Source: a virus (lineage: Duplodnaviria; Caudoviricetes). From it: DNA of 25,850 nt. Where the stretch lies: IMG/VR virus record IMGVR_UViG_3300012953_007654, positions 1-25,850 of that record. One strand, given 5' to 3'. This document shows, piece by piece, positions 1 to 18,477 of the stretch. Position 1 is the stretch's first letter, and each line of letters opens with the position of its first letter. The notes beneath the pieces are model-generated. The model made no database searches and was not told where the DNA came from. It saw only the letters and a program-made list of their open reading frames with translations. A program made the position numbers and the translations under genes.

Positions 1-74
1 ATGAGCATAGTATTACCGTGGAATTTTTTGATAGAAAATACGTCAGTAACTGAATTAAATTTGGCAGATTATCC

Positions 75-82
75 ATATTTAG
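75..82 (+). promoter_or_regulatory. Possible variant (ATATTTAG) of the putative late promoter motif
   Basis: One mismatch to the ATATTTAT motif seen upstream of four other genes; lies about 26 nt upstream of the ATG at 109. Confidence 0.35.
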
Positions 83-108
83 TGTCAACTAAACAAGGGG
101 CTGATAAG

Positions 109-264
109 ATGCTATCAATAGAAGAAATTATTATGAGATTAGAGGCAGCTATTTATGATAAAGACTGGGCAGCTGCCGAACTGTTGCTAGAAGATTTACA
201 AATTGAAGACGAATCGTTCGATCAGGGGTATGATCAGTTTGCTAACGAAGATTATGATGATTAA
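109..264 (+). CDS. Small acidic hypothetical protein (51 aa; MLSIEEII...)
   Basis: The track ORF is 1..264, but AAGGGG (SD-like, 95-100) precedes ATG 109, so this start is more likely. Very acidic C-terminus. Confidence 0.6.
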   Translation: MLSIEEIIMRLEAAIYDKDWAAAELLLEDLQIEDESFDQGYDQFANEDYDD

Positions 265-271
265 ATAATAT

Positions 272-689
272 GGGCCCGCTTGGTATCGACGGGTGCTTTT
301 TGACAATAGAGTGCAGCAAGGTTTGAACAAGACCTGTTAAAAAAGGTTCACTAACTCAAATGGTGATAATTCACTAGACGGGTTGGTAATCGATTGGCAT
401 TTAGCCGATCATGATTCAGCACCTCATGTAGGTTCTGAGTTGGATTACCAACAATCTTATTCCTACGCGGCATAAGATACTGAGTTGTCTAACACTCGGT
501 CATAAAATAAGTTAGACACAAACTCGTGTGGTAGAGTATAAGAGTCACCTGTTGACAATCAGAACAAATGTCTAGTGGTTTTGCAGGTAAATTAATAGGC
601 CTCCTAAAGCTGATGGAAAACCTGACTAAGCTGTAAATGACTCGTTGTTAACGGTATACCGGACGGGAGTTCGAATCTCCCCGGGTCCA
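272..689 (+). ncRNA. ssrA: Phage-encoded tmRNA
   Basis: Acceptor stem GGGCCCG (272-278)/CGGGTCC (682-688) with G3-U wobble and discriminator A689 (Ala identity). 5' GGTATCGACGGG motif. T-arm GGGAG-TTCGAAT-CTCCC (665-681). Helix 2: TGACAATAGAGT/ACTCGTTGTTA and TGCAGC/GCTGTA. PK1 at 319-350 (AGGTT/GACCT, TGAAC/GTTCA); PK2 at about 480-518 (TGTCTAAC/GTTAGACA). Tag ends YAA-stop. Confidence 0.96.
362..475 (+). other. tmRNA tag reading frame: (A)GDNSLDGLVIDWHLADHDSAPHVGSELDYQQSYSYAA*
   Basis: Resume codon GGT follows an 11-nt spacer after PK1 with A at -4 (CAAAT-G), the spacing known from E. coli. Open for 37 codons to ...TAC GCG GCA TAA; the stop sits in hairpin ATCTTAT/ATAAGAT (454-478). Confidence 0.85.
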
Positions 690-698
690 CAATAAATT

Positions 699-842
699 AT
701 GTTTAAACATATTAAAGAAAATAATACGACGTATATGAAGCATTGGTTGAGAGCAATGAAATGTGCAATTGCATTAATAATACACGCTTTCTATCCGGAT
801 ATACTTCAAGATTATACATCAAAAAAGTTACAAAATAAATGA
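699..842 (+). CDS. Small protein, DUF6356-like (47 aa; MFKHIKENNTTYMKHWLRAMKCAIALIIHAFYPDILQDYTSKKLQNK)
   Basis: Not in the ORF track; translated by hand. The H-x-x-E-x3-TY-x2-H ... IHA-x2-P pattern recalls DUF6356. Fills the gap after the tmRNA. Confidence 0.65.
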   Translation: MFKHIKENNTTYMKHWLRAMKCAIALIIHAFYPDILQDYTSKKLQNK

Positions 843-851
843 AAAAAAGCC

Positions 852-880
852 TTTCATATTACACGAAATGTTATTAGATT
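852..880 (+). promoter_or_regulatory. Possible sigma70-type promoter (TTTCAT-N17-TAGATT) with an upstream A-tract
   Basis: 17-nt spacing and an A-run at 842-848; upstream of the 918 gene. Weak -35 match. Confidence 0.35.
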
Positions 881-917
881 ATGCTATCAATAATAAGATA
901 ATAATGGAGCGCACACA

Positions 918-1433
918 ATGCAAAACCTAAATAAATACATACTAACAATTGCTTTTATCACTATGGTAAATGCCTTTATAACTACAAAGTTTATGAAGAA
1001 ACATAAAGAGATTTATCATGGACACTATGCAGAATTGACAGTACAAAATAAAGTTCTATCAGATAGACTATCAAAATTCTATCAGCATGGAATAAAAGTT
1101 GATGTTACAATGTATCAGCCAGATAAAATACAGTGTGATGATACACCAGATATTACTGCTGACGGCACTCGAATTAGGATAGGCAAAGCATCACAATATA
1201 AATTTGTTGCACTATCTCGTAACTTACTTAAGCGGTGGGGTGGACCATTTGACTACGGTGATTTTGTTTTATTAAAGGGTACAGGTGGGAAAGACGGTGT
1301 TTATCAAGTACGTGATACAATGAATGCTAAATGGGTTAATGTAGTAGATATTTTAGAATCAAAAGGTGTAGCACCTTACAAATATGTGAATTGCGATATT
1401 TTTAAATTAGACTGGACAAAGGAGAATGCATGA
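918..1433 (+). CDS. 3D (Asp-Asp-Asp)-domain protein, putative peptidoglycan lytic transglycosylase with an N-terminal hydrophobic anchor
   Basis: VTMY...TADG...VALSR...YGD...V-DTM...VDIL matches the 3D/double-psi beta-barrel pattern. GGAG SD upstream; hydrophobic residues about 7-23. Confidence 0.75.
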   Translation: MQNLNKYILTIAFITMVNAFITTKFMKKHKEIYHGHYAELTVQNKVLSDRLSKFYQHGIKVDVTMYQPDKIQCDDTPDITADGTRIRIGKASQYKFVALSRNLLKRWGGPFDYGDFVLLKGTGGKDGVYQVRDTMNAKWVNVVDILESKGVAPYKYVNCDIFKLDWTKENA

Positions 1434-6726: not shown

Positions 6727-7165
6727 TAGATTAATAAGAAATCTTGCAAACATAAAGCACGAGCATACAAATGAAAATAAGTTTCTTAAGACGAAGGCAA
6801 AAATAAAAGAAATGAAAAACAATGTTAAGGAAGCTCAGAAAGATGCCTTAGCAATACATGATTACGTTTCTCGTGCAGATGTCTCTATGGGAGGTGCAAA
6901 TAGCAGTCCACCATTAATGCATCCGAGCTCTTTTAGATTTATGCCAAGAAGATTATTAGAAATTTTAGCTATACCAAATCCTACTGAAAGAGAAGCAGCA
7001 ATTGTACAACTTGAAAATGATTTGACTATTGGTTTGGTGCAAACTAATAATGGGAGATATTTAACTACAAAGGGCGCTGCGAGTAGTTATAATATTGGTA
7101 CATTTAGATCGATGAGTGCAAATATTATTAAAGGACTTTTTAGCATAAAGGGAAAACTTAAGTAA
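6710..7165 (+). CDS. Hypothetical protein
   Basis: 151-aa ORF overlapping both neighbours, with TAATG coupling to gp25. Confidence 0.7.
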   Translation: MALSLSRLIRNLANIKHEHTNENKFLKTKAKIKEMKNNVKEAQKDALAIHDYVSRADVSMGGANSSPPLMHPSSFRFMPRRLLEILAIPNPTEREAAIVQLENDLTIGLVQTNNGRYLTTKGAASSYNIGTFRSMSANIIKGLFSIKGKLK

Positions 7166-7602
7166 TGGCATTAGAAAACCCAAGAACAACTTCTGTTAGA
7201 TCTAGAGATAAAGATCCTGATACATTTATTGGTGTGTCATTGCCATTTGTACATTCTCGTCACGGGTGGTTTAAGTCCAGTACGACATTACTTAAACAGA
7301 CGAAATCAAATATGAAAAATTTATTATTGACTGTGAAAGGTGAAAGAGTAAATCAGCCTGAACTTGGATGTGATTTGTTTAATATTTTATTTGAGCCTAT
7401 GGACGATAAGCTAAGTGAAAAAATAGATTCTTCGATAAGAGAATCAGTTGGATTATGGTTGCCCCACGTAGTATTAAAAGGTATAAATATTGATTTGCAG
7501 CATGACTTAAATTTAGTCAATATAAGTGTAACATTTACAACAAGGATAGAACCGAATGCTACAGAGACAATAACATTAAATCTAGCGACAGTAGGAGAAT
7601 AA
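7165..7602 (+). CDS. Baseplate wedge subunit, gp25/GPW family
   Basis: KSNMKNLLLTVKGERVNQPELGCDLFNILFEP...WLPHV is the gp25 signature. Confidence 0.92.
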   Translation: MALENPRTTSVRSRDKDPDTFIGVSLPFVHSRHGWFKSSTTLLKQTKSNMKNLLLTVKGERVNQPELGCDLFNILFEPMDDKLSEKIDSSIRESVGLWLPHVVLKGINIDLQHDLNLVNISVTFTTRIEPNATETITLNLATVGE

Positions 7603-7605
7603 TAG

Positions 7606-9609
7606 ATGGCACTAGATAAACAGAGACCAAAAGATATAAATTTTTTAAACAAAAATTTTACAGGATTACGTGGTGATTTAATCGACTTTGCAAAAGATTA
7701 TTTTCCATCATCATATTCAGATTTTAATGAAACAAGCCCAGGTATGATGTTCATAGAGATGGCTGCTTATGTCGGTGACATACTTTCATTTTATATTGAT
7801 GAACAATTTCGTGAATCACTATTAGCATACGCTGAAGAGAGAAAAACAGTTTTTGCAATAGCCCAATCTTACGGGTACAAACCTACAATATCTACACCTG
7901 CTCAAACAACACTAGAAGTATTTCAAACTGTTCCAGCAGCAGGGTCAGGTGACAATGTGACACCAAATTATTCTTACGGCTATAGAGTAAAGCCAGGATC
8001 TGTTGTTTCGGCAGACCAGTTTGGAAAAACATTTAGGTTAGTCGAAGAAGTAGATTTCAGTACATCAGGCTCACTTGATCCTGTAGAGACAAGTATTTAT
8101 GAGGTTGATGATTCGGGAAATCCTACTAAATTTTTATTAAAGAAAAATGCAAGGTGTGTTAGCGGTGAAGTTGTTAAAGAGACTTTTTCATTCGGATCTG
8201 CAAAAGCATATGACATGCTGACATTAGGAAGCAAAAATGTTTTAGAAGTAATATCTTGTATAGATTCAGATGGGAACAAGTGGTATCATGTAGATTCACT
8301 AGCACAAGACTTAATATATGATGAAGTTAGAAATGATGCAGAATTTGATCCCAATCTTGCTGCGTATAATGACACTACGCCATATATGCTAAAGCTCATC
8401 AGAACAAAGAAAAGATTTAAGACACATATAAAGCCGGATGGCACATTTCAATTACAGTTTGGTTCCGGAACAGCAACAGAAAATGATGAAGAAGTTATAC
8501 CTAATCCATCGACAGTTGGAAATTCAAATGTTAATTCTGATTTCTTAAATTCTAATTCAGCACTTGATCCTGCCAACTTTTTAGAAACCTCTGTTTACGG
8601 TCAGGCACCTGCAAATACAACATTAACTATAACATACTCTACTGGCGGTGGCATTGATGATAATGTACCTGCCAACTCTATAACATCAAAAAGAAGTGTT
8701 GATGCTGCTATTAATTCTGCAGGACTCGATGGAACACTTAGAGATGAATCATTAAATTCAATATCAGTTAATAATCCTTCTCCTGCTACAGGCGGCAAAG
8801 GTGCTGAAACAATAAAAGAGATAAAAGAAAATGTTAAACAATATTTTCAGGCACAGCAAAGGGCTGTATCAAAAGAGGACTACGTAACTAGAGTCTATAG
8901 TATGCCTTCTAAGTTTGGCAACATCTCAAAGATTTTTATAACACAAGACGACCAACTAAACTCAGGTCAAGGTGTAATACAAGGGCAAACTATCTCTCCA
9001 GAAGTTTTAATGGAAAAATATGTTGAGCCAAACGAACCTTTAAAAGTGCAAGACTTAGAAGTTCGAGTTCCTAATCCTATGGCACTAAACTTTTATGTGC
9101 TAGGATACAATAAACAAAAGAAACTAGAGCACGTTAATGAAGCGACAAAAAGAAACATTAAGACTTACCTAGGGCCTTATAGAATGCTGACAGACGCGGT
9201 CAACATTAAGGATGGATATATTATTAACATTGGCGTTAGATTTTCAATATATGCAAAAAAAGGATTTAACAAAGAAGAAATTATTTTTAAGTGCATTCAA
9301 AAAGTAAAAGATTATTTTAATGTAGACAAATGGCAAATAAATCAACCAATTATATTAAGCGACATTGCATATGAGATTTCTCTTGTTGAAGGCGTAAATA
9401 GTGTTGTACCACCAATTGAAAATAATCCTGATGGGAGTTTAATTATAATAAATAATAAATTTAATAAAGCTAGCGGCTACTCAGGCAATATTTTTGATAT
9501 ATCAACAGCAGTTAAAAATGGTGTTGTGTACCCATCACTAGACCCTTCAATTTTTGAAATAAGATTTCCTGACATAGACATTGTCGGTAAGTGCTTAGGA
9601 GATTATTAA
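7606..9609 (+). CDS. Baseplate wedge subunit, T4 gp6-like (baseplate J-like)
   Basis: DFNETSPGMMFIEMAAYVGDILSFYID; LQFGSG; ATGGKGAETIKEIK; QQRAVSKEDY motifs. Follows gp25. Confidence 0.92.
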   Translation: MALDKQRPKDINFLNKNFTGLRGDLIDFAKDYFPSSYSDFNETSPGMMFIEMAAYVGDILSFYIDEQFRESLLAYAEERKTVFAIAQSYGYKPTISTPAQTTLEVFQTVPAAGSGDNVTPNYSYGYRVKPGSVVSADQFGKTFRLVEEVDFSTSGSLDPVETSIYEVDDSGNPTKFLLKKNARCVSGEVVKETFSFGSAKAYDMLTLGSKNVLEVISCIDSDGNKWYHVDSLAQDLIYDEVRNDAEFDPNLAAYNDTTPYMLKLIRTKKRFKTHIKPDGTFQLQFGSGTATENDEEVIPNPSTVGNSNVNSDFLNSNSALDPANFLETSVYGQAPANTTLTITYSTGGGIDDNVPANSITSKRSVDAAINSAGLDGTLRDESLNSISVNNPSPATGGKGAETIKEIKENVKQYFQAQQRAVSKEDYVTRVYSMPSKFGNISKIFITQDDQLNSGQGVIQGQTISPEVLMEKYVEPNEPLKVQDLEVRVPNPMALNFYVLGYNKQKKLEHVNEATKRNIKTYLGPYRMLTDAVNIKDGYIINIGVRFSIYAKKGFNKEEIIFKCIQKVKDYFNVDKWQINQPIILSDIAYEISLVEGVNSVVPPIENNPDGSLIIINNKFNKASGYSGNIFDISTAVKNGVVYPSLDPSIFEIRFPDIDIVGKCLGDY

Positions 9610-10718: not shown

Positions 10719-11041
10719 TGCCGTATACAGAAGAAGAGTTACAAGATAATTTACATTATCAGTCTTTAAAAGAAAGAGACGAGATTAAATACGAACAGAA
10801 GTTTCAAAAAGATTTATCGAAATTTTTACAAAAAAATCTTAAAGCAGGCTCCGAGCCGAATAAAGTTTTAAAAACTTCTTTGAGAGATGGTAATGGTGTT
10901 ATAAGGCTTTTTGAGAATTTTAGTAATGGTGAGACATATTCTAATTTATCACAAAAATTATATGTCGAAGTTTATCAAAGAAGATACAGAACAAAAGAAG
11001 ACACATTCGATTATATTGACAGAGAATTTAAGGAGCTGTAA
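10718..11041 (+). CDS. Hypothetical structural-region protein
   Basis: TAATG-coupled on both sides; ends IDREFKEL. Confidence 0.75.
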   Translation: MPYTEEELQDNLHYQSLKERDEIKYEQKFQKDLSKFLQKNLKAGSEPNKVLKTSLRDGNGVIRLFENFSNGETYSNLSQKLYVEVYQRRYRTKEDTFDYIDREFKEL

Positions 11042-14000
11042 TGGCATACGACGCAAAGTCTAAACGACTACAAATTCTACCGGAAAAAATCCAGGGATTA
11101 GTCACACTACCAGAAACAAAAGACTGGACCCCATACAGAGATACAAATTACTATCCACAATTTGTAAGTGAGACGTATGAGTCAAGTAAGTGGCCTGACC
11201 TAAAGTATGGTCAGCATGAAGATGATCTTATAAAAGTTAATGTTTATGGTGACGATAATATTTTAATAACAACAACTTATGTTAACAGTGATGAATTTCA
11301 AAGTGAAGTAGACAATGATCTAGATATTCCTGTAATACAAATAGATGCTGCAAAAATATTAAAAGATCTTGGATTTAGAAGGGGTAGATTTAAAATAAAA
11401 TTTTGCTTTTATAGACTGATGTTTGGTAGCCCTTATCCATTATTAGTAAACGGTGAAGAGAAAATTTATTTTGGTGGGTTTGAAGAAGATGATACAAATA
11501 AAATGTTTGCTCTTGATGATCACACAGCATCAGAAACATCAATAGGCGATAGAGTATTTTCAAAAGAAGATAAAGCAATACTGACTAGAATATCTTCTGA
11601 TAGAACAGAAATAGTTTTATCACCGAACTTTATTAATGACTCAAGCTATTTAGAGAGATTTAGAATTGCTGCATATACATGCTTAAATGATTTTCCTATA
11701 GAAGACGAAGGGGTTAAGTTTGCAGATGGAGAAGACTCAAATTATCTTACTGTTGTCAGTGATAACTCTGTCTCTAGAAAATATATAAATGGAATGATAA
11801 GAATTAATGATGCATACTTTTTAGGAAAAAGAGTTGTACCTGCGCTAAATGCATCTATTGTTGTCGAGCCTGCATTTACAACTGAACCGAAACCGGTAAA
11901 CTTATTAAGAGGTAGATATTTAGATAGCGACTATCAATGGAGAGGACACAGCCCATTTCCAAATGAAGATGCAGTTAATTCAATATCACAAGACAACCCA
12001 ACATTATTAGGTACAGAAACTGTTGTTAAACAAACACCTGTAGGCAATCAATGTGTTAGAGTTTTCTATCAGACAACAGCAAATCATTCTACAGATGCAA
12101 ATCATTCTTTCTGCTTGTCACCGTATTTAAAAATACACAGAGAAATAAACAATCAAGAATTTACTTTTAGTGCATACGTTCAAGGTGTTAAAGATAGTAA
12201 AGTTAGATTATTAGCACATGCTGGTCCCTGGGGTATTGAATCAACAACATCTAGATCGCCGCTGTTTGAGGTCACAGGTAAGTGGCAAAGAATATCACAC
12301 ACATTTACTCTATCAGAAGTCGGTGAAGGAAATGATGTTATTACGCTAAGAGTTGTAATATATCCTAATGGACAATTTAACCCTAGCCTTGAGACAGCAA
12401 TAGGGACAGAATATTTTCTTGCAGGTGGTCAGCTAGAGATAGGATCATCAGCTAGCCAATTTACTAGAAATGAAGATGAATCTTCTGAAGAAATAGAGAT
12501 AGCTGAATCTGGTACAATTAAATTTATCGATCCTGATAGCGATGATCCTATTATAAAAAGAACTCTTAAGGCAGATCTTGGTTCTGGCGATGAGATATTC
12601 ATACAGAAGATGGTTGGCTCTAATATCTTAATTAGAGATGCAATGACAATAGATGATCTCAGCTCTCAGATGGTCACAAATGAACTTGATCTAAGAGAAA
12701 TAAGACACCTACAACCTTATATAAATTCTTCTTATGAAATTCCTGGTTCTTATGTTGGATCAAAATCATGGACTCAGTTAGGTGTAGACTTCTCATTTCA
12801 GTGGGATACAAATTTACACTCACAAGCAGTTGCTCAAAAAGATGAGTATGATAGAGGACTATGGTCAAACGGCTTTAGTACACTTAACCCTGCTGCTAAA
12901 TGGGAACAAGTTGGAGATGCAGCTGTTGGTTATCACGCACACTGGCTAAAAGACAAGGGAGTTGATAACGAGTTATGTATGTATTTTCCTGACCTCAACT
13001 ACTTGCCAGAAATATTAGAACAAAGAAAAGTATTATCACTCGCAGCGTACAACGATCCAGTTACAGGATATTATGTAAGAGACGGGCTAGAAGATCCGAG
13101 AATAACAGGTGATGTAATTAATTCAGAAAGATTCAAGCACAGATGGTTGTCAATAGGAACTGGAGTTGGCGGACAGTATGGTGATAGTAGTGCTATTGGG
13201 GCTTTGGCAGCTTATGGCGCAAAGCCAGGAGATACAGTAAGAATTACATGGCAACAAAAAGCAATACCTCAAAATCCTGACTTTGATAACGGAGGAAGAA
13301 AAGGTGCACAAGTACAATTACTACATTATTATAAAGAAGTTATCGAGTCTCCTTCAACACCGTTTATCACAGGACAAGATATTAGAAATGAAATGATTGA
13401 TCTAATAACAGGATTCTACAGAGAAGGATTGACAAACTCATTAATTGTAAATGTTTTAAATAATATTTACGATGAAGTAAATGCATCAAGAAAAGGATAT
13501 ACATCAGGTAATGGTATTAAAAATTATAGAGTTGAAATTGTAGAAGGTAATGTTAACCCTGTTGCAATAGAAAACATAGAGATGGAAGATGAAATATTTG
13601 CTGTTACAGAAGATAAAGTTAGTTTCATTACAAAATTAGAAGATAAAACTGAACTAAGAACAGTTGATGTATCAGCAGATGTACCAGATTCTCAGATGAG
13701 AAAAACTGATTTTATATTTGGAACACGAGCATCTACTAATGAAGATGATACAAAAATATTAGGAACATCCGGACGACCTCCAGCAGAAGGGCCTACTGCG
13801 TGTGGTTATACAGAATTTGGATCTGTTACTAATTCAAGCTCAAATATTTCACCATTAGGTGAGAACAAACCTCCATTACCTTCTCCAAGTAATAGGCCAC
13901 CTTTAGATGATTATAATGACTGGAACTGGTCTGGAGTAAAGTGGATTATTGACGGTGACTTAGTTGCAGCTGGATGGAGTTATATAGGGCAAAATCCTGT

Positions 14001-17000
14001 AGGAGAAAGATGGGTGCAAACTGGTATTAATGATCCTGAAAATACGGGTGAAGGATTTATTATGCCTGCTATAGTTGCTATTGGTGGATTTGTTTATTTG
14101 TCTGAAGCCTTAGGTTGGGTATGGGATGGGTCTGAGTGGCAGTCGATGATAACCTTATTACAAAAAGAATCATTTTACTATGTAAGCCCTAGCACAATAC
14201 CGTTTTATCAAAGTTTGGCAAACGGAAATTATGAGACTAGTTATACAGATGTTCAGCCTTATCCTTCATCAGAAATTATTAATAATGATATTACAAATTC
14301 ACCTGATGGTAATTGGAAGTGGAATGGAGTTCAATGGAATTATGTCGCCGGACAAACAGAAGAAGAACTGCAGACAGGTGCAGACGGTGTTAGGTCTTTT
14401 ACAAAAACAACTCTAACAGATACTTTGACAAAAAATACAGACGGTACTGTTGCAACAAGATCGAAAGGTTATGTTACTTGTCATGAATTAGGTGAATGGG
14501 AAGAAGCGCACTTTGATTTTATTATACCAGAAGACAATTCATTTGGGCTGTATACAAATTGTGGCATTAGAATGTTAGGCCACAAAGGTGGTTTTGGTGA
14601 GTTGTGGGTTGACAAAGTAAGGATTGATATTTTGTTGACATCAAACGAAAGAATTAAAGTAGATCAAACTGCAAAGCTAGGTCCTATACTTTTAAAAATA
14701 GAAGAAGTCTTAGAGAATGACACTATTGTTGTAGAGCAGACGTATGACGAAGCTGCAGACGAACAAGGAAGAGTGGACGCAAACATACCTGTTAATAAAT
14801 ACACATCATTTGGTGGCGGCTATGAAGTGGGTTATGTCGAAGAAGATGAAGTAATTGAAGACATAATGGCAAGGTATGAAGGAAAAATTTTAGACATAGA
14901 AGGTAATAAATTAATAGTTGATAAGTCATACAGAGAATTTGGTGGAACAATAAACGCAATAAGCGGAAGTGTAGATTCACCAAATATAGAACATCAGTTT
15001 AATGATTATTTTGTAAGATACAGACTTAAAGATTCTGATAATTTATACACTAAGGTCGTATTTGGTGGAGATGTTGAATCAGTTGTTGTTAACTTTAAAC
15101 CTGTAAATGCAACTAATTATCCTGGATCTATAGCTTATAAATTATTGGAGCCCTTGCCAGATGAGATAACTGAATTTGATTCTGCATATATTGCGTCAGA
15201 AGTAACTCCTGATCTTGTAGAGACTGTTGATCTTGTTCCTTTTATAGATGAGGTAATACCTGATACTGTTTTAAAGGCACCAAAGCTTAGTGAAATAGAA
15301 CCAGTTATTGTGAAGCGTGAAACTGAATACAGAAGCCATACTGATCTTGTAGGCGTTAACACTGATGTTAGACAACAATTAGAAGATAAGATATTTAGCG
15401 GTAGCTTATTAGATGTCAGTATAAATGTTGACTATAGTATCTTTGAAAACTTCTCACACTTCGGATCAGTTGAAAAGCGAGTTAATAATTTTAAAGATAA
15501 ATTAGAAACAATAGAATTGTATACACAAAAAAGCCAGTCTTTAGGAGGTACATCACAAACGCCGTACATTACAGGACAAACATCTGGTTCAATTGTTTCA
15601 GGATCATCAGACCAAATGAAATTTTGGAATATGGAAAAAAGAAAAGTTATAAATGGTTTTGATGATTTTGAAAACTATATGTTTAATGTAAGCTCTTCAT
15701 ATATTTCTAGTTCTAATGGAATAGAGTATGATAATGCTGCACCTAAATTTTCTGGTGATGGCACATTGACAAATCCTTATAAATTATTTTCTGTTAGCAG
15801 TTCTGAATTTACAACATGGCATACTAATTTGATTTCGTCAGCATCAGTGTTTGATAGAAAAAATACAAATAGGTTGATAAATTTAATCCCAGCACACGTC
15901 ACATATGATGTTGATAATGAACCCTTTATAAGATTTATGGACATGATGGGCCACCATTACGATATTATATGGACACATATTAAGGCAATGACAGATGTTC
16001 ATGAAAGAAGCGAAGATATAACAAAAGGTATATCAGCACAACTAGTTCAACCTGTCGCAGAATCACTAGGGTTTACGATGTTGGAAGGCAGAGATCTTGT
16101 TAGAATGCCTCAATATCATTTAGGTCTTGCTGAATCAGGAAGCAGAACAGGTGAATTTAATGTTAGATTTACAAAGAAGTCACAACAAGATGTTACAAGA
16201 GAAATATGGAATAGAATACTTTCTACTATGCCATACATTCTAAAAACAAAAGGTACGAAGCAATCACTTAAGGCACTAATTGCTGCTTATGGTATTCCAA
16301 CTTCAATATTAAGAATACAAGAATACGGCGGACCAAAAATAGAAGGAGGTTCACCTGAGTTTGAAATAAAACAGAGATATACATACGCGTTAGATTTTCA
16401 CGGATCACAAAGATTAGCATCACCGTGGTATAGAAATACTCTTACAGACAGAACAAGTGACACAATAGAATTTAGATTTAAAACTGGAATAGAAAGGAAT
16501 ACATTAATAGCTACAAAAAATAATTCTAGTAATATGGTTGAATCTGCGATTTATATCCACAACGTTAGCGGATCAGACACAAAAGGCAAACTAGCATTTG
16601 CACTATCTGGGAGTGAAGGATTTGTTACTGCTAGTTTACAACCTCTGCCATTTTATAATAACGAATACTGGTCTGTAATGGTCAGGCGTCGTCAAGCTTC
16701 AATAAGCAGCAGTTATTCCGAACAGTCACTTACAGGTGAGACAACTCAAGCAACACACAGCTTTGATATTTATGCAGGATTCTATGATTCAGGCACAGAT
16801 GAAATTATTACTAAAGCATCTGCTAGCATGACGCTATCTGGTTCTAGTTTGCTTGCAAGCTGGTACGCATCAAGTTCAATAGGTGATAATTACTGGCAAA
16901 TTGGTGGTAAGACACAGACAAGTGAAGAAAACACATTATACGGAAGTAAATTTTCAGGCTCAATAATGGAATGGAGATATTGGAGCACACCTTTAAAAGA

Positions 17001-18477
17001 GGCAGCATTTTTTAACCATGTTTCTGCACCAAAGGCAATTAACGGAAATCATGAAAGCTCATCATTTTATGATATGAACTTAAGATTTTCTATGGATGAC
17101 AAAGCAAATTTAAATTCTAGTCCAAACGTTGTAAGAGATTATTCTTTAACAGGTGGCCAAGTATACGCAACTGGATCTGGATTTGCTAATGCAATAAACT
17201 TTAGTTCTGTTTCTGATAGACAAAAAGGATTTATTCCTTCAATAGGACTTAATAAAACTTCTAACAAACTTAGACTAGACAACAGAAAAACAATTTACTC
17301 AGATGGCGTGCCACCTGTCTTAAGTACAACTGAAAGAGTTGAGTTGAGCTCATACGACACAGCACCACTTGATTCAAATAAGCTAGGAATATTTTTTGCA
17401 CCAAGTGATGTTATAAATGAAGATATTATATTGTCATTAGCTGACTTGGACTTTGGATCTTATTTAGGTGATCCAAGAGACACATATGCAGACAGATATT
17501 ACCACGGAAGATTAGATAGAATATCAGACACATATTGGAAAAAATGGACAACAAAATTTAATTTTTGGGATTATCTAAAATTAATAAAATATTATGATTT
17601 AAGTTTATTTGATCACCTTAGAAAACTTTCACCTGCGAGAGCTAAGAAAAATATTGGTATATTAATAGAGCCAACTTTGTTAGAAAGACCTAAAGTAATT
17701 GTTGGTAACAAGCCTTTTGTAGAAGAAAGAAACTATAGAGGCAGAATAAGACATTACACGCTCTATAGCCAAAGTGCCGCAGAATACACAAAGTCAGGAT
17801 CTATAAACCTTCCGTTTGACGGATTACTGACATCATCAAATGATATGTATACATCACAAATGAGTGGAAAGGTCTATAACTTAGACACAGGATCATATGA
17901 AAGTAGAACATCTAAATTAAACATATTATCTCATAGAAAATACACATCTTCTAGAGACGATATGGCTTCACATTTTAAGTGGTCATATGAGGCAAATGTC
18001 CCACTAACATCTAGCAAAGATGACTATGAGTCTATTGCAAATGCAAATAGATTTAATTATGAACAGTTTAGAGGGTTTAAAGTTGATCCGTTAATTGATC
18101 CGCTAGAAAGAAATTATACTGAAGGTGAGGTTTATTCTGGTGGTGGAGGAAATATTTTTCATGAAGTTTTAATGCCAATGGCTACTTCATCTGTTAAGTC
18201 TGCTTTAAATGATGATAGAATATATCACTATAGTTCATCGATAAGTAAATCACTTAACCTATGGTATTCTTCATCGTTTGAAAAGTCTGAAAAAGAATCA
18301 TTATTTACATCACATACAGGCATGTTTAATTTAATGTATGGGGGCTGCTTAGAAAACGGAGACACAATACCTGATGGAAATAAAATTGCTGTTGAAATAA
18401 CTGAAGTTAATCCTTACAGGGTAACCTCTAGAAGATCAGGCGATTCGTTCGTTGATGTTCAATTAGACAATGAATAA
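11041..18477 (+). CDS. Giant (2478 aa) baseplate wedge protein, gp7-like, with CBM-like jelly-roll and LamG-like domains
   Basis: Wedge-like motifs FMDMMGHHYD and EIWNRIL..MPYILKTKGT..SLKALIAAYGIP. CBM-like FTFSAYV...WQRISHTF...QLEIGS. LamG-like TIEFRFKT...YWSVMV...FSGSIMEWRYW. C-terminal KLSPARA..GILIEP. Confidence 0.75.
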   Translation: MAYDAKSKRLQILPEKIQGLVTLPETKDWTPYRDTNYYPQFVSETYESSKWPDLKYGQHEDDLIKVNVYGDDNILITTTYVNSDEFQSEVDNDLDIPVIQIDAAKILKDLGFRRGRFKIKFCFYRLMFGSPYPLLVNGEEKIYFGGFEEDDTNKMFALDDHTASETSIGDRVFSKEDKAILTRISSDRTEIVLSPNFINDSSYLERFRIAAYTCLNDFPIEDEGVKFADGEDSNYLTVVSDNSVSRKYINGMIRINDAYFLGKRVVPALNASIVVEPAFTTEPKPVNLLRGRYLDSDYQWRGHSPFPNEDAVNSISQDNPTLLGTETVVKQTPVGNQCVRVFYQTTANHSTDANHSFCLSPYLKIHREINNQEFTFSAYVQGVKDSKVRLLAHAGPWGIESTTSRSPLFEVTGKWQRISHTFTLSEVGEGNDVITLRVVIYPNGQFNPSLETAIGTEYFLAGGQLEIGSSASQFTRNEDESSEEIEIAESGTIKFIDPDSDDPIIKRTLKADLGSGDEIFIQKMVGSNILIRDAMTIDDLSSQMVTNELDLREIRHLQPYINSSYEIPGSYVGSKSWTQLGVDFSFQWDTNLHSQAVAQKDEYDRGLWSNGFSTLNPAAKWEQVGDAAVGYHAHWLKDKGVDNELCMYFPDLNYLPEILEQRKVLSLAAYNDPVTGYYVRDGLEDPRITGDVINSERFKHRWLSIGTGVGGQYGDSSAIGALAAYGAKPGDTVRITWQQKAIPQNPDFDNGGRKGAQVQLLHYYKEVIESPSTPFITGQDIRNEMIDLITGFYREGLTNSLIVNVLNNIYDEVNASRKGYTSGNGIKNYRVEIVEGNVNPVAIENIEMEDEIFAVTEDKVSFITKLEDKTELRTVDVSADVPDSQMRKTDFIFGTRASTNEDDTKILGTSGRPPAEGPTACGYTEFGSVTNSSSNISPLGENKPPLPSPSNRPPLDDYNDWNWSGVKWIIDGDLVAAGWSYIGQNPVGERWVQTGINDPENTGEGFIMPAIVAIGGFVYLSEALGWVWDGSEWQSMITLLQKESFYYVSPSTIPFYQSLANGNYETSYTDVQPYPSSEIINNDITNSPDGNWKWNGVQWNYVAGQTEEELQTGADGVRSFTKTTLTDTLTKNTDGTVATRSKGYVTCHELGEWEEAHFDFIIPEDNSFGLYTNCGIRMLGHKGGFGELWVDKVRIDILLTSNERIKVDQTAKLGPILLKIEEVLENDTIVVEQTYDEAADEQGRVDANIPVNKYTSFGGGYEVGYVEEDEVIEDIMARYEGKILDIEGNKLIVDKSYREFGGTINAISGSVDSPNIEHQFNDYFVRYRLKDSDNLYTKVVFGGDVESVVVNFKPVNATNYPGSIAYKLLEPLPDEITEFDSAYIASEVTPDLVETVDLVPFIDEVIPDTVLKAPKLSEIEPVIVKRETEYRSHTDLVGVNTDVRQQLEDKIFSGSLLDVSINVDYSIFENFSHFGSVEKRVNNFKDKLETIELYTQKSQSLGGTSQTPYITGQTSGSIVSGSSDQMKFWNMEKRKVINGFDDFENYMFNVSSSYISSSNGIEYDNAAPKFSGDGTLTNPYKLFSVSSSEFTTWHTNLISSASVFDRKNTNRLINLIPAHVTYDVDNEPFIRFMDMMGHHYDIIWTHIKAMTDVHERSEDITKGISAQLVQPVAESLGFTMLEGRDLVRMPQYHLGLAESGSRTGEFNVRFTKKSQQDVTREIWNRILSTMPYILKTKGTKQSLKALIAAYGIPTSILRIQEYGGPKIEGGSPEFEIKQRYTYALDFHGSQRLASPWYRNTLTDRTSDTIEFRFKTGIERNTLIATKNNSSNMVESAIYIHNVSGSDTKGKLAFALSGSEGFVTASLQPLPFYNNEYWSVMVRRRQASISSSYSEQSLTGETTQATHSFDIYAGFYDSGTDEIITKASASMTLSGSSLLASWYASSSIGDNYWQIGGKTQTSEENTLYGSKFSGSIMEWRYWSTPLKEAAFFNHVSAPKAINGNHESSSFYDMNLRFSMDDKANLNSSPNVVRDYSLTGGQVYATGSGFANAINFSSVSDRQKGFIPSIGLNKTSNKLRLDNRKTIYSDGVPPVLSTTERVELSSYDTAPLDSNKLGIFFAPSDVINEDIILSLADLDFGSYLGDPRDTYADRYYHGRLDRISDTYWKKWTTKFNFWDYLKLIKYYDLSLFDHLRKLSPARAKKNIGILIEPTLLERPKVIVGNKPFVEERNYRGRIRHYTLYSQSAAEYTKSGSINLPFDGLLTSSNDMYTSQMSGKVYNLDTGSYESRTSKLNILSHRKYTSSRDDMASHFKWSYEANVPLTSSKDDYESIANANRFNYEQFRGFKVDPLIDPLERNYTEGEVYSGGGGNIFHEVLMPMATSSVKSALNDDRIYHYSSSISKSLNLWYSSSFEKSEKESLFTSHTGMFNLMYGGCLENGDTIPDGNKIAVEITEVNPYRVTSRRSGDSFVDVQLDNE

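Follow-up and report, generated by a model that had tools for sequence, protein, structure and literature searches.

We confirmed that a three-way RNA junction lies at positions 382-452 of the window (the whole stretch of DNA that was analysed, a 25,850-base virus record from a marine phage with baseplate-wedge genes), within the tag reading frame of an intact phage tmRNA. Comparison with its relatives shows the segment to be, as far as their sequences can tell, under selection as an RNA fold and as a reading frame alike, and it is most likely read through into an unusually long tag rather than cut out. With a probability that we put at roughly two in three, it represents a double-coded expansion domain of the phage tmRNA, read through as an extended degron tag, with its closing stem, P1, in the place of helix H5. 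The parts of the gene, all on the plus strand, are the following.

272..692, plus strand: one-piece phage tmRNA gene (RF00023 match, ARAGORN and sequence)
319..350, plus strand: pseudoknot 1, 319-322/332-335 and 324-328/346-350, placed by eye from the sequence and homologues
351..361, plus strand: linker of 11 nt before the resume codon, with A at -4 (358)
362..475, plus strand: tag reading frame, 37 codons and TAA (473-475), from translation
362..375, plus strand: hairpin over the resume codon, 362-366/371-375, counterpart of 'helix m'
374..406, plus strand: codons of the conserved core L-x-G-L-x-I-D-W-H-L-A
381..453, plus strand: P1, the conserved closing stem; in this allele 382-391/443-452
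392..410, plus strand: P2 hairpin, coding for D-W-H-L-A-D; loop 399-403
413..441, plus strand: P3 hairpin, coding for the variable middle of the tag, from the single-sequence fold
455..477, plus strand: stop-codon helix, counterpart of H5, 455-460/472-477, one base past P1
479..518, plus strand: pseudoknot 2, 479-485/494-500 in the fold and 486-493/511-518 by eye

The gene matches Rfam RF00023 over model positions 1-374 with 70.7 bits, against a gathering threshold of 47. Its tRNA-Ala-like domain, T arm included, has a 7-bp acceptor stem (272-278/682-688) with a G-U third pair (G274-U686) and an A discriminator (A689); CCA is not encoded. The tag frame, with its resume context, stop codon and hydrophobic end, is a standard tmRNA feature that is also present here. 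The resume site at 362 is backed by the same context in a short-tag relative (L163, see below), and its register matches the row of a family member in the available part of a published seed alignment. ARAGORN called a 22-aa tag in this gene, which we rejected as a resume site because it begins in the middle of the element. Run on 15 family members, the program missed 7 and placed the resume codon of the other 8 inside the element, so this family of long-tag tmRNAs is under-annotated.

No sigma-70-like promoter was found in window positions 1-1000. Positions 1-264 hold a small acidic ORF without PHROG or Pfam match that ends 7 nt upstream of the tmRNA, and a similar acidic C-terminus is encoded upstream of the tmRNA in most relatives viewed. 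In the regions 7165-9609 and 11041-18477, baseplate wedge genes (gp25-like and gp6-like) indicate a contractile-tail phage, and a 2478-aa ORF had no PHROG or Pfam match.

The original prediction described a perfect stem between 382-391 and 443-452 that encloses hairpins at 392-410 and 413-441, and these stems proved correct when checked on the sequence. ViennaRNA folds 378-456 into exactly this three-way junction (-33.9 kcal/mol, with MFE and centroid identical), none of 200 dinucleotide shuffles was as stable (z -5.57), and the junction persists when 345-530 is folded. In the full-length 421-nt fold, computed without pseudoknots, the centroid retains P1 and the MFE structure breaks it. When its peptide was recoded synonymously at random 60 times, the window allele stood at z -4.2 against the recodings. 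Deletion of 380-451 leaves 13 codons, as had been noticed from the sequence. The premise that this region of tmRNAs is normally single-stranded was only partly right, as a small 'helix m' over the resume codon is described in the accessible parts of two papers (PMC1168896, PMC8363625).

We collected at least 152 distinct long-tag alleles, the window's included, from at least 314 partly redundant loci on phage-like contigs, by pattern scans of IMG/VR, metagenomes and GTDB. Left out were 10 loci that were truncated or had no stop in reach and 31 without tmRNA context, the latter including two real members clipped at their 5' ends (L049 and L129). The extraction pattern fixes part of the peptide core; a check for this bias, with scans anchored 5', outside the element, gave 129 distinct segments, 107 with the strict core and 22 without. 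By reading, the 22 comprise 4 core variants, 1 short-tag tmRNA (L163), 4 segments that are too short and 13 unrelated ones. Among cultured-phage records there was no match beyond a 30-nt piece of the T arm.

Folded alone, each of the 152 alleles forms P1 with a probability above 0.5, and each is more stable than the mean of its own 60 synonymous recodings (median z -2.3; 97 alleles below -2). Base pair 388-446 is canonical in 144 of them (A-U 86, C-G 36, G-C 12, G-U 5, U-G 3 and U-A 2), and its changes affect the encoded amino acid of one side or of both. In a tag-region tree for which the arm columns were masked, the two positions share 17 of their 21 changes, other columns sharing no more than 6; a tree of the flanks (106 alleles) gives 21 of 24 (0.88), the next best value being 0.68. 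Covariation, which had been proposed as a check, supports the closing stem through 388-446 on two trees, this being the only P1 pair with strong tree-based covariation. The outermost pair, 381-453, forms in 144 of 152 alleles but not in that of the window, and 387-447 and 391-443 pair in just 93 and 95 of 152.

The predicted junction as a whole was scored in 43 hand-picked junction-type alleles, in which 86.8% of its cells are paired and 10 pairs show two-sided changes, with 0 of 500 shuffles (a control that ignores kinship) doing as well and slid controls at 23-50%. P3 is the weakest helix, with 70.6% of cells paired in the same alleles. What RNAalifold returned at default settings was limited to the P2 core, the hairpin at the resume codon and a small one at the stop, without P1 or P3; with RIBOSUM scoring it recovers the whole junction.

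The interior of P1 takes several forms, with two inner hairpins in 98 alleles, one in 50 and three in 4. Sorted by the partner of the D-W-H codons, 80 alleles are junctions of the window type, 22 are junctions that have a distal arm and 50 are rods; the P2 region forms a local hairpin in 80 of 152 and is paired distally in 71. Across the 106 alleles of the flank tree, 29 switches between these fold classes occur, and the tag middle of L010, the allele closest to that of the window (90% in the flanks), is different. The conserved structural unit is the closing stem P1, and its interior is not fixed; the three-way junction does not hold up as a conserved unit. Because 50 of the 152 alleles are unbranched rods closed by the same P1, a fold-specific protein-binding site, one of the functions first suggested, is unlikely. 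The idea that a discrete, selected RNA module explains the long tag is borne out, its removal leaving 13-15 codons in 150 of 152 alleles.

A regulatory switch had also been proposed. In its explicit form, the 5' arm of P1 would alternate between the 3' arm of P1 and linker 351-357, gating the tmRNA, and the second state would lengthen the resume hairpin and hide the linker. A competing pairing of 351-357 with 380-386 is possible: this alternative state has a probability of 0.26 in the window and occurs in the full-length MFE structure, its probability exceeds 0.1 in 27 of the 95 alleles chosen as representatives, compared with 8% of 1140 shuffled linkers, and four core pairs are possible in 137-152 of the 152 alleles. 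The pairing is thus commoner than in shuffles, but covariation gave it no support, as there is no compensatory change and the P1 arm is invariant. With a median probability of 0.03 for the alternative state, P1 dominating in 89 of the 95 representatives, a linker conservation that may serve frame setting and no ligand or trigger identified, we regard such a switch as quite improbable.

The reading frame is maintained along with the fold. In all 152 alleles, over 11 element lengths (69-105 nt), the Q/E-P anchor is in frame and no stop intervenes, and the frame is kept through about 28 length changes on a tree. The other two frames have stops in 146 and 152 of 152 alleles, which lie largely in shared core triplets and are not independent. 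The resulting tags are 34-46 aa long, with one of 49 aa, carry a net charge of -1 to -9 and end in hydrophobic residues (Y-A-Y-A or Y-A-A type). At two loci (L076/L142), a sense codon replaces the tag stop, and read-through extends the tag to 49 aa with an end that is not hydrophobic.

Pairwise comparisons of 151 alleles, which are not independent, gave pN/pS values of 0.10-0.14 in the core G-L-x-I-D-W-H-L-A and 0.26-0.33 at the C-terminus. Values in the middle of the tag were 0.40-0.50 among closer pairs and up to 0.81 among distant ones. The first six codons, whose silent sites are bound by the resume hairpin, reached 0.74-1.15; wobble in RNA pairing also favours third-position changes and lowers pN/pS in stems. 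The clearest case is the unpaired P2 loop of 80 alleles, where the second codon positions A399 and T402 are invariant (80/80), and positions 400, 401 and 403 vary, with transitions there being silent. The 107 alleles found by scanning from an anchor outside the element have the same codon pattern, though all of them were extracted with the core pattern.

The insertion might instead be nearly neutral, tolerated since it is folded away and in frame, and its peptide inert. A hypervariable middle and a short-tag form within the clade would fit, but the silent-only variation in the P2 loop and the excess of long forms (111, with a single short one, in the readable segments of the scans whose anchor lies outside the element) render this very improbable.

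The tag peptide had no Pfam match and no Atlas match, and an AlphaFold model of it was uninformative (pLDDT 61, pTM 0.18). In a profile search against 1.84 billion proteins there were 34 matches, and 21 of the 22 viewed are frames over the same kind of tmRNA. Two long-protein matches, examined by Pfam only, were taken as chance. Another match (P0001) is a predicted frame with the core motif twice in tandem, which may be a duplicated segment or an assembly slip. We set aside a ribosome-arrest peptide, given that the spacing from W to P varies.

The exact-pattern scan of GTDB, which would overlook a diverged bacterial form, gave 10 matches, 7 without tmRNA context and 3 on phage-like contigs binned into bacterial MAGs (L161 on NHIV01000037.1, L160 and L159), contigs that do not name the host. 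All three MAGs have a 9-aa-tag tmRNA of their own; two of these tmRNAs (L234 and L235) encode the same 9-aa tag, which hints weakly at a single host group with which such phages bin. The updated RF00023 seed alignment (PMC11915505 supplement) includes the L161 tmRNA as a row, and in its available part the element is an unmodelled insertion; several other rows on the same page have insertions of 15-35 nt in the tag region (PMC11915505).

These distributions bear on a tentative alternative that we consider unlikely, though less so than the others weighed here, in which L-x-G-L-x-I-D-W-H-L-A is a docking site or mimic that gives the tagged protein a fate other than plain degradation and the fold is only a carrier. 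Capture by a phage factor, jamming of a host protease or adaptor and a signal of the number of stalled ribosomes are the fates proposed. The core is nearly invariant and the spacer is swapped freely (29 class changes, 106 alleles), the exact motif in GTDB is confined to the three phage-like contigs in MAGs with short-tag tmRNAs of their own, and the profile matches viewed lead back, with one exception, to this kind of tmRNA. However, the degron-like C-terminus is conserved just as well, by its pN/pS of 0.26-0.33, the spacing between W and the C-terminus varies, and the partner is only hypothetical. Were docking the function, which we think doubtful, trans-translation would serve as delivery, every stalled chain receiving a conserved phage peptide whose docking target is either a phage protein or a protease, adaptor or defence factor of the host. 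Stalling would thereby be made to signal for the phage or to block quality control in the host, and the cassette would be nuclease-shielded, exchanged in its middle between phages and possibly gated by the linker/P1 switch.

The original prediction also considered that the element might be excised, or bypassed by a ribosome hop, so that a 13-aa tag is made beside the long one. We give almost no credence to this, although removal leaves 13-15 codons in 150 of 152 alleles and the stem brings the ends of the element together. Constraint on the coding sequence within it (frame, stop-freedom and conserved peptide) speaks against excision, as do RNA contigs. Among contigs of four metatranscriptome runs (four studies) placed on window 150-950, exact matches at 288-491 (X1) and 349-502 (X3), from two studies, span the element unspliced; no joint skips 380-451 in the four runs, in contigs that drop rare forms, show no strand and may include DNA and that could miss a minor cut form. 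The one joint present, at 400-473, represents a longer allele, not a cut. Coverage by the RNA contigs is confined to bins 258-689, with the flanks bare, and we do not take them as proof of a mature transcript. With respect to bypass, T4 gene 60 offers a likeness, a stem-loop within a coding region; unlike it, the element lacks matched take-off and landing codons, found in at most 30 of 152 alleles over 12 codon pairings, and has no stop after the take-off codon. The element is 71 nt long, in the tag frame, and had no intron family match up to E = 1, whereas the known tmRNA introns, in the portion of PMC11915505 available, are group I introns in the T-loop averaging 293-414 bp.

The only short-tag member found (L163; contig IMGVR_UViG_3300030106_006181, minus strand, about 561-470) is not a deletion product either, having another tag, H5 and pseudoknot 2. 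It has a 9-aa tag, its own resume hairpin and H5 at +18. Its flanks are 97% (5') and 99% (3') like those of long-tag alleles, among which it is nested (99 SH-aLRT, quick tree). It looks like a swap of the whole cassette of tag, H5 and pseudoknot 2, on a single contig that is possibly a chimera. In a search for a sister family of its short-tag module, only its own contig matched.

The position of P1 points to how read-through of the long tag could be accommodated. P1 lies 19 nt from the first resume base in 143 of 152 alleles, the other 9 having 22 nt. The corresponding start of H5 is +18 in E. coli, L163 and L234, and +15 in L235. A single base separates the 3' arm of P1 from the stop helix, whose pairs are kept in 138-150 of 151 alleles, with an A-U/U-A swap at the first pair. 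In the resume hairpin, 142-143 of the 143 alleles that share its spacing retain each pair, and in 5 of them C-G has become U-A. The tag region is 28% unpaired here, compared with 58% in E. coli. H5 docks on uS3, uS4 and uS5 and is unwound only once translation has resumed, according to the accessible part of PMC8363625. Because P1 lies at +19 and H5 at +18, P1 would replace H5 and loop out the extra coding sequence; it probably keeps the normal tmRNA geometry while setting aside a long, swappable coding cassette.

We infer from the sequences the following roles for the element and its tag in geometry, shielding and degradation. The phage tmRNA would enter a stalled host ribosome with host SmpB, and translation would resume at G362. 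P1, as the first long helix 18-19 nt past the resume codon, would take the H5 position, and roughly 70-100 extra nucleotides would be looped out as a compact side domain that leaves the pk1-resume-helix-pk2 geometry unchanged and is shielded from nucleases, as the low unpaired fraction suggests. The ribosome's own helicase would unwind P1-P3 and the stop helix, so that the entire 37-aa acidic tag is appended. The tag may act as a multi-part degradation signal, in which a swappable acidic spacer connects the ordinary hydrophobic C-terminus with a conserved motif upstream that a protease or adaptor would recognise, comparable to the long Mycoplasma tags that favour Lon. An extended degron fits because the product is acidic with a hydrophobic end and because there is a precedent in M. 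pneumoniae, whose 27-aa tag is cleared by Lon, as stated in the part of PMC8403727 available. The 9-aa tag of L163 counts against this extended-degron reading, as it indicates that the long form is not indispensable. SmpB was found in neither of two viral records (79% and 25% complete), and ClpP and Lon_C in none of 5 partial phage records each (14-79% complete).

The element bears on the question of why phages carry tmRNA: its tag has three to four times as many residues as is usual and contains a conserved internal motif. Short, rod and junction variants occur naturally on scaffolds that are almost identical, which makes the peptide and the fold separately testable. The comparison also suggests a design rule for tmRNA: the first long helix has to lie about 18 nt past the resume codon, and a side domain at that helix can supply extra coding capacity, which may be useful for engineered tags.

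Compared with standard tmRNAs (RF00023, E. coli SsrA), this one shares the tRNA-like domain with its G-U third pair, pseudoknot 1, the 11-nt linker, the resume hairpin, a long helix about 18 nt on, the stop helix, pseudoknot 2 and the hydrophobic tag end. It differs by a folded coding domain of 69-105 nt between the resume region and the stop helix, and by a tag of 34-46 aa, against a commonest length of 10 (PMC11915505) and a range of 8-35 in a review (PMC3968760), both as given in the parts available. Our literature search, with most subscription journals outside its scope, found no description of a folded coding element, and long tags are not discussed in the text of PMC11915505 covered by reading and term search.

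The long Mycoplasma tags are similar in length and in the structure predicted in their coding part: in the accessible sections of PMC1168896, the predicted 'helix m' of the coding part has 2-10 bp, M. pulmonis reaching the upper value, and mRNA-like regions span 48-126 nt. Judging from these descriptions, the phage tag is longer and differs by its covarying closing stem, branched folds and aromatic-acidic core. Other phage-encoded tmRNAs, in Bacillus phage G, mycobacteriophages and DS6A (PMC4131195), the two-piece tmRNA of Melnitz (PMC9004378) and those of huge phages (PMC7162821), resemble it in being carried by a large tailed phage, here with SmpB not found in the partial relatives searched; the available portions of these three accounts mention no long structured tag. 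Group I introns in tmRNA have a group I core, a T-loop site and several hundred bases, none of which applies to the element. Intron-bearing and permuted tmRNAs also hold extra sequence inside the gene; in the parts available of PMC11915505, that sequence is removed and lies in the T-loop or between the permuted ends, whereas the element is retained in the tag frame. We strongly infer that it is a real, covarying and translated expansion domain of a phage tmRNA clade, and as such a variant of the known tmRNA.
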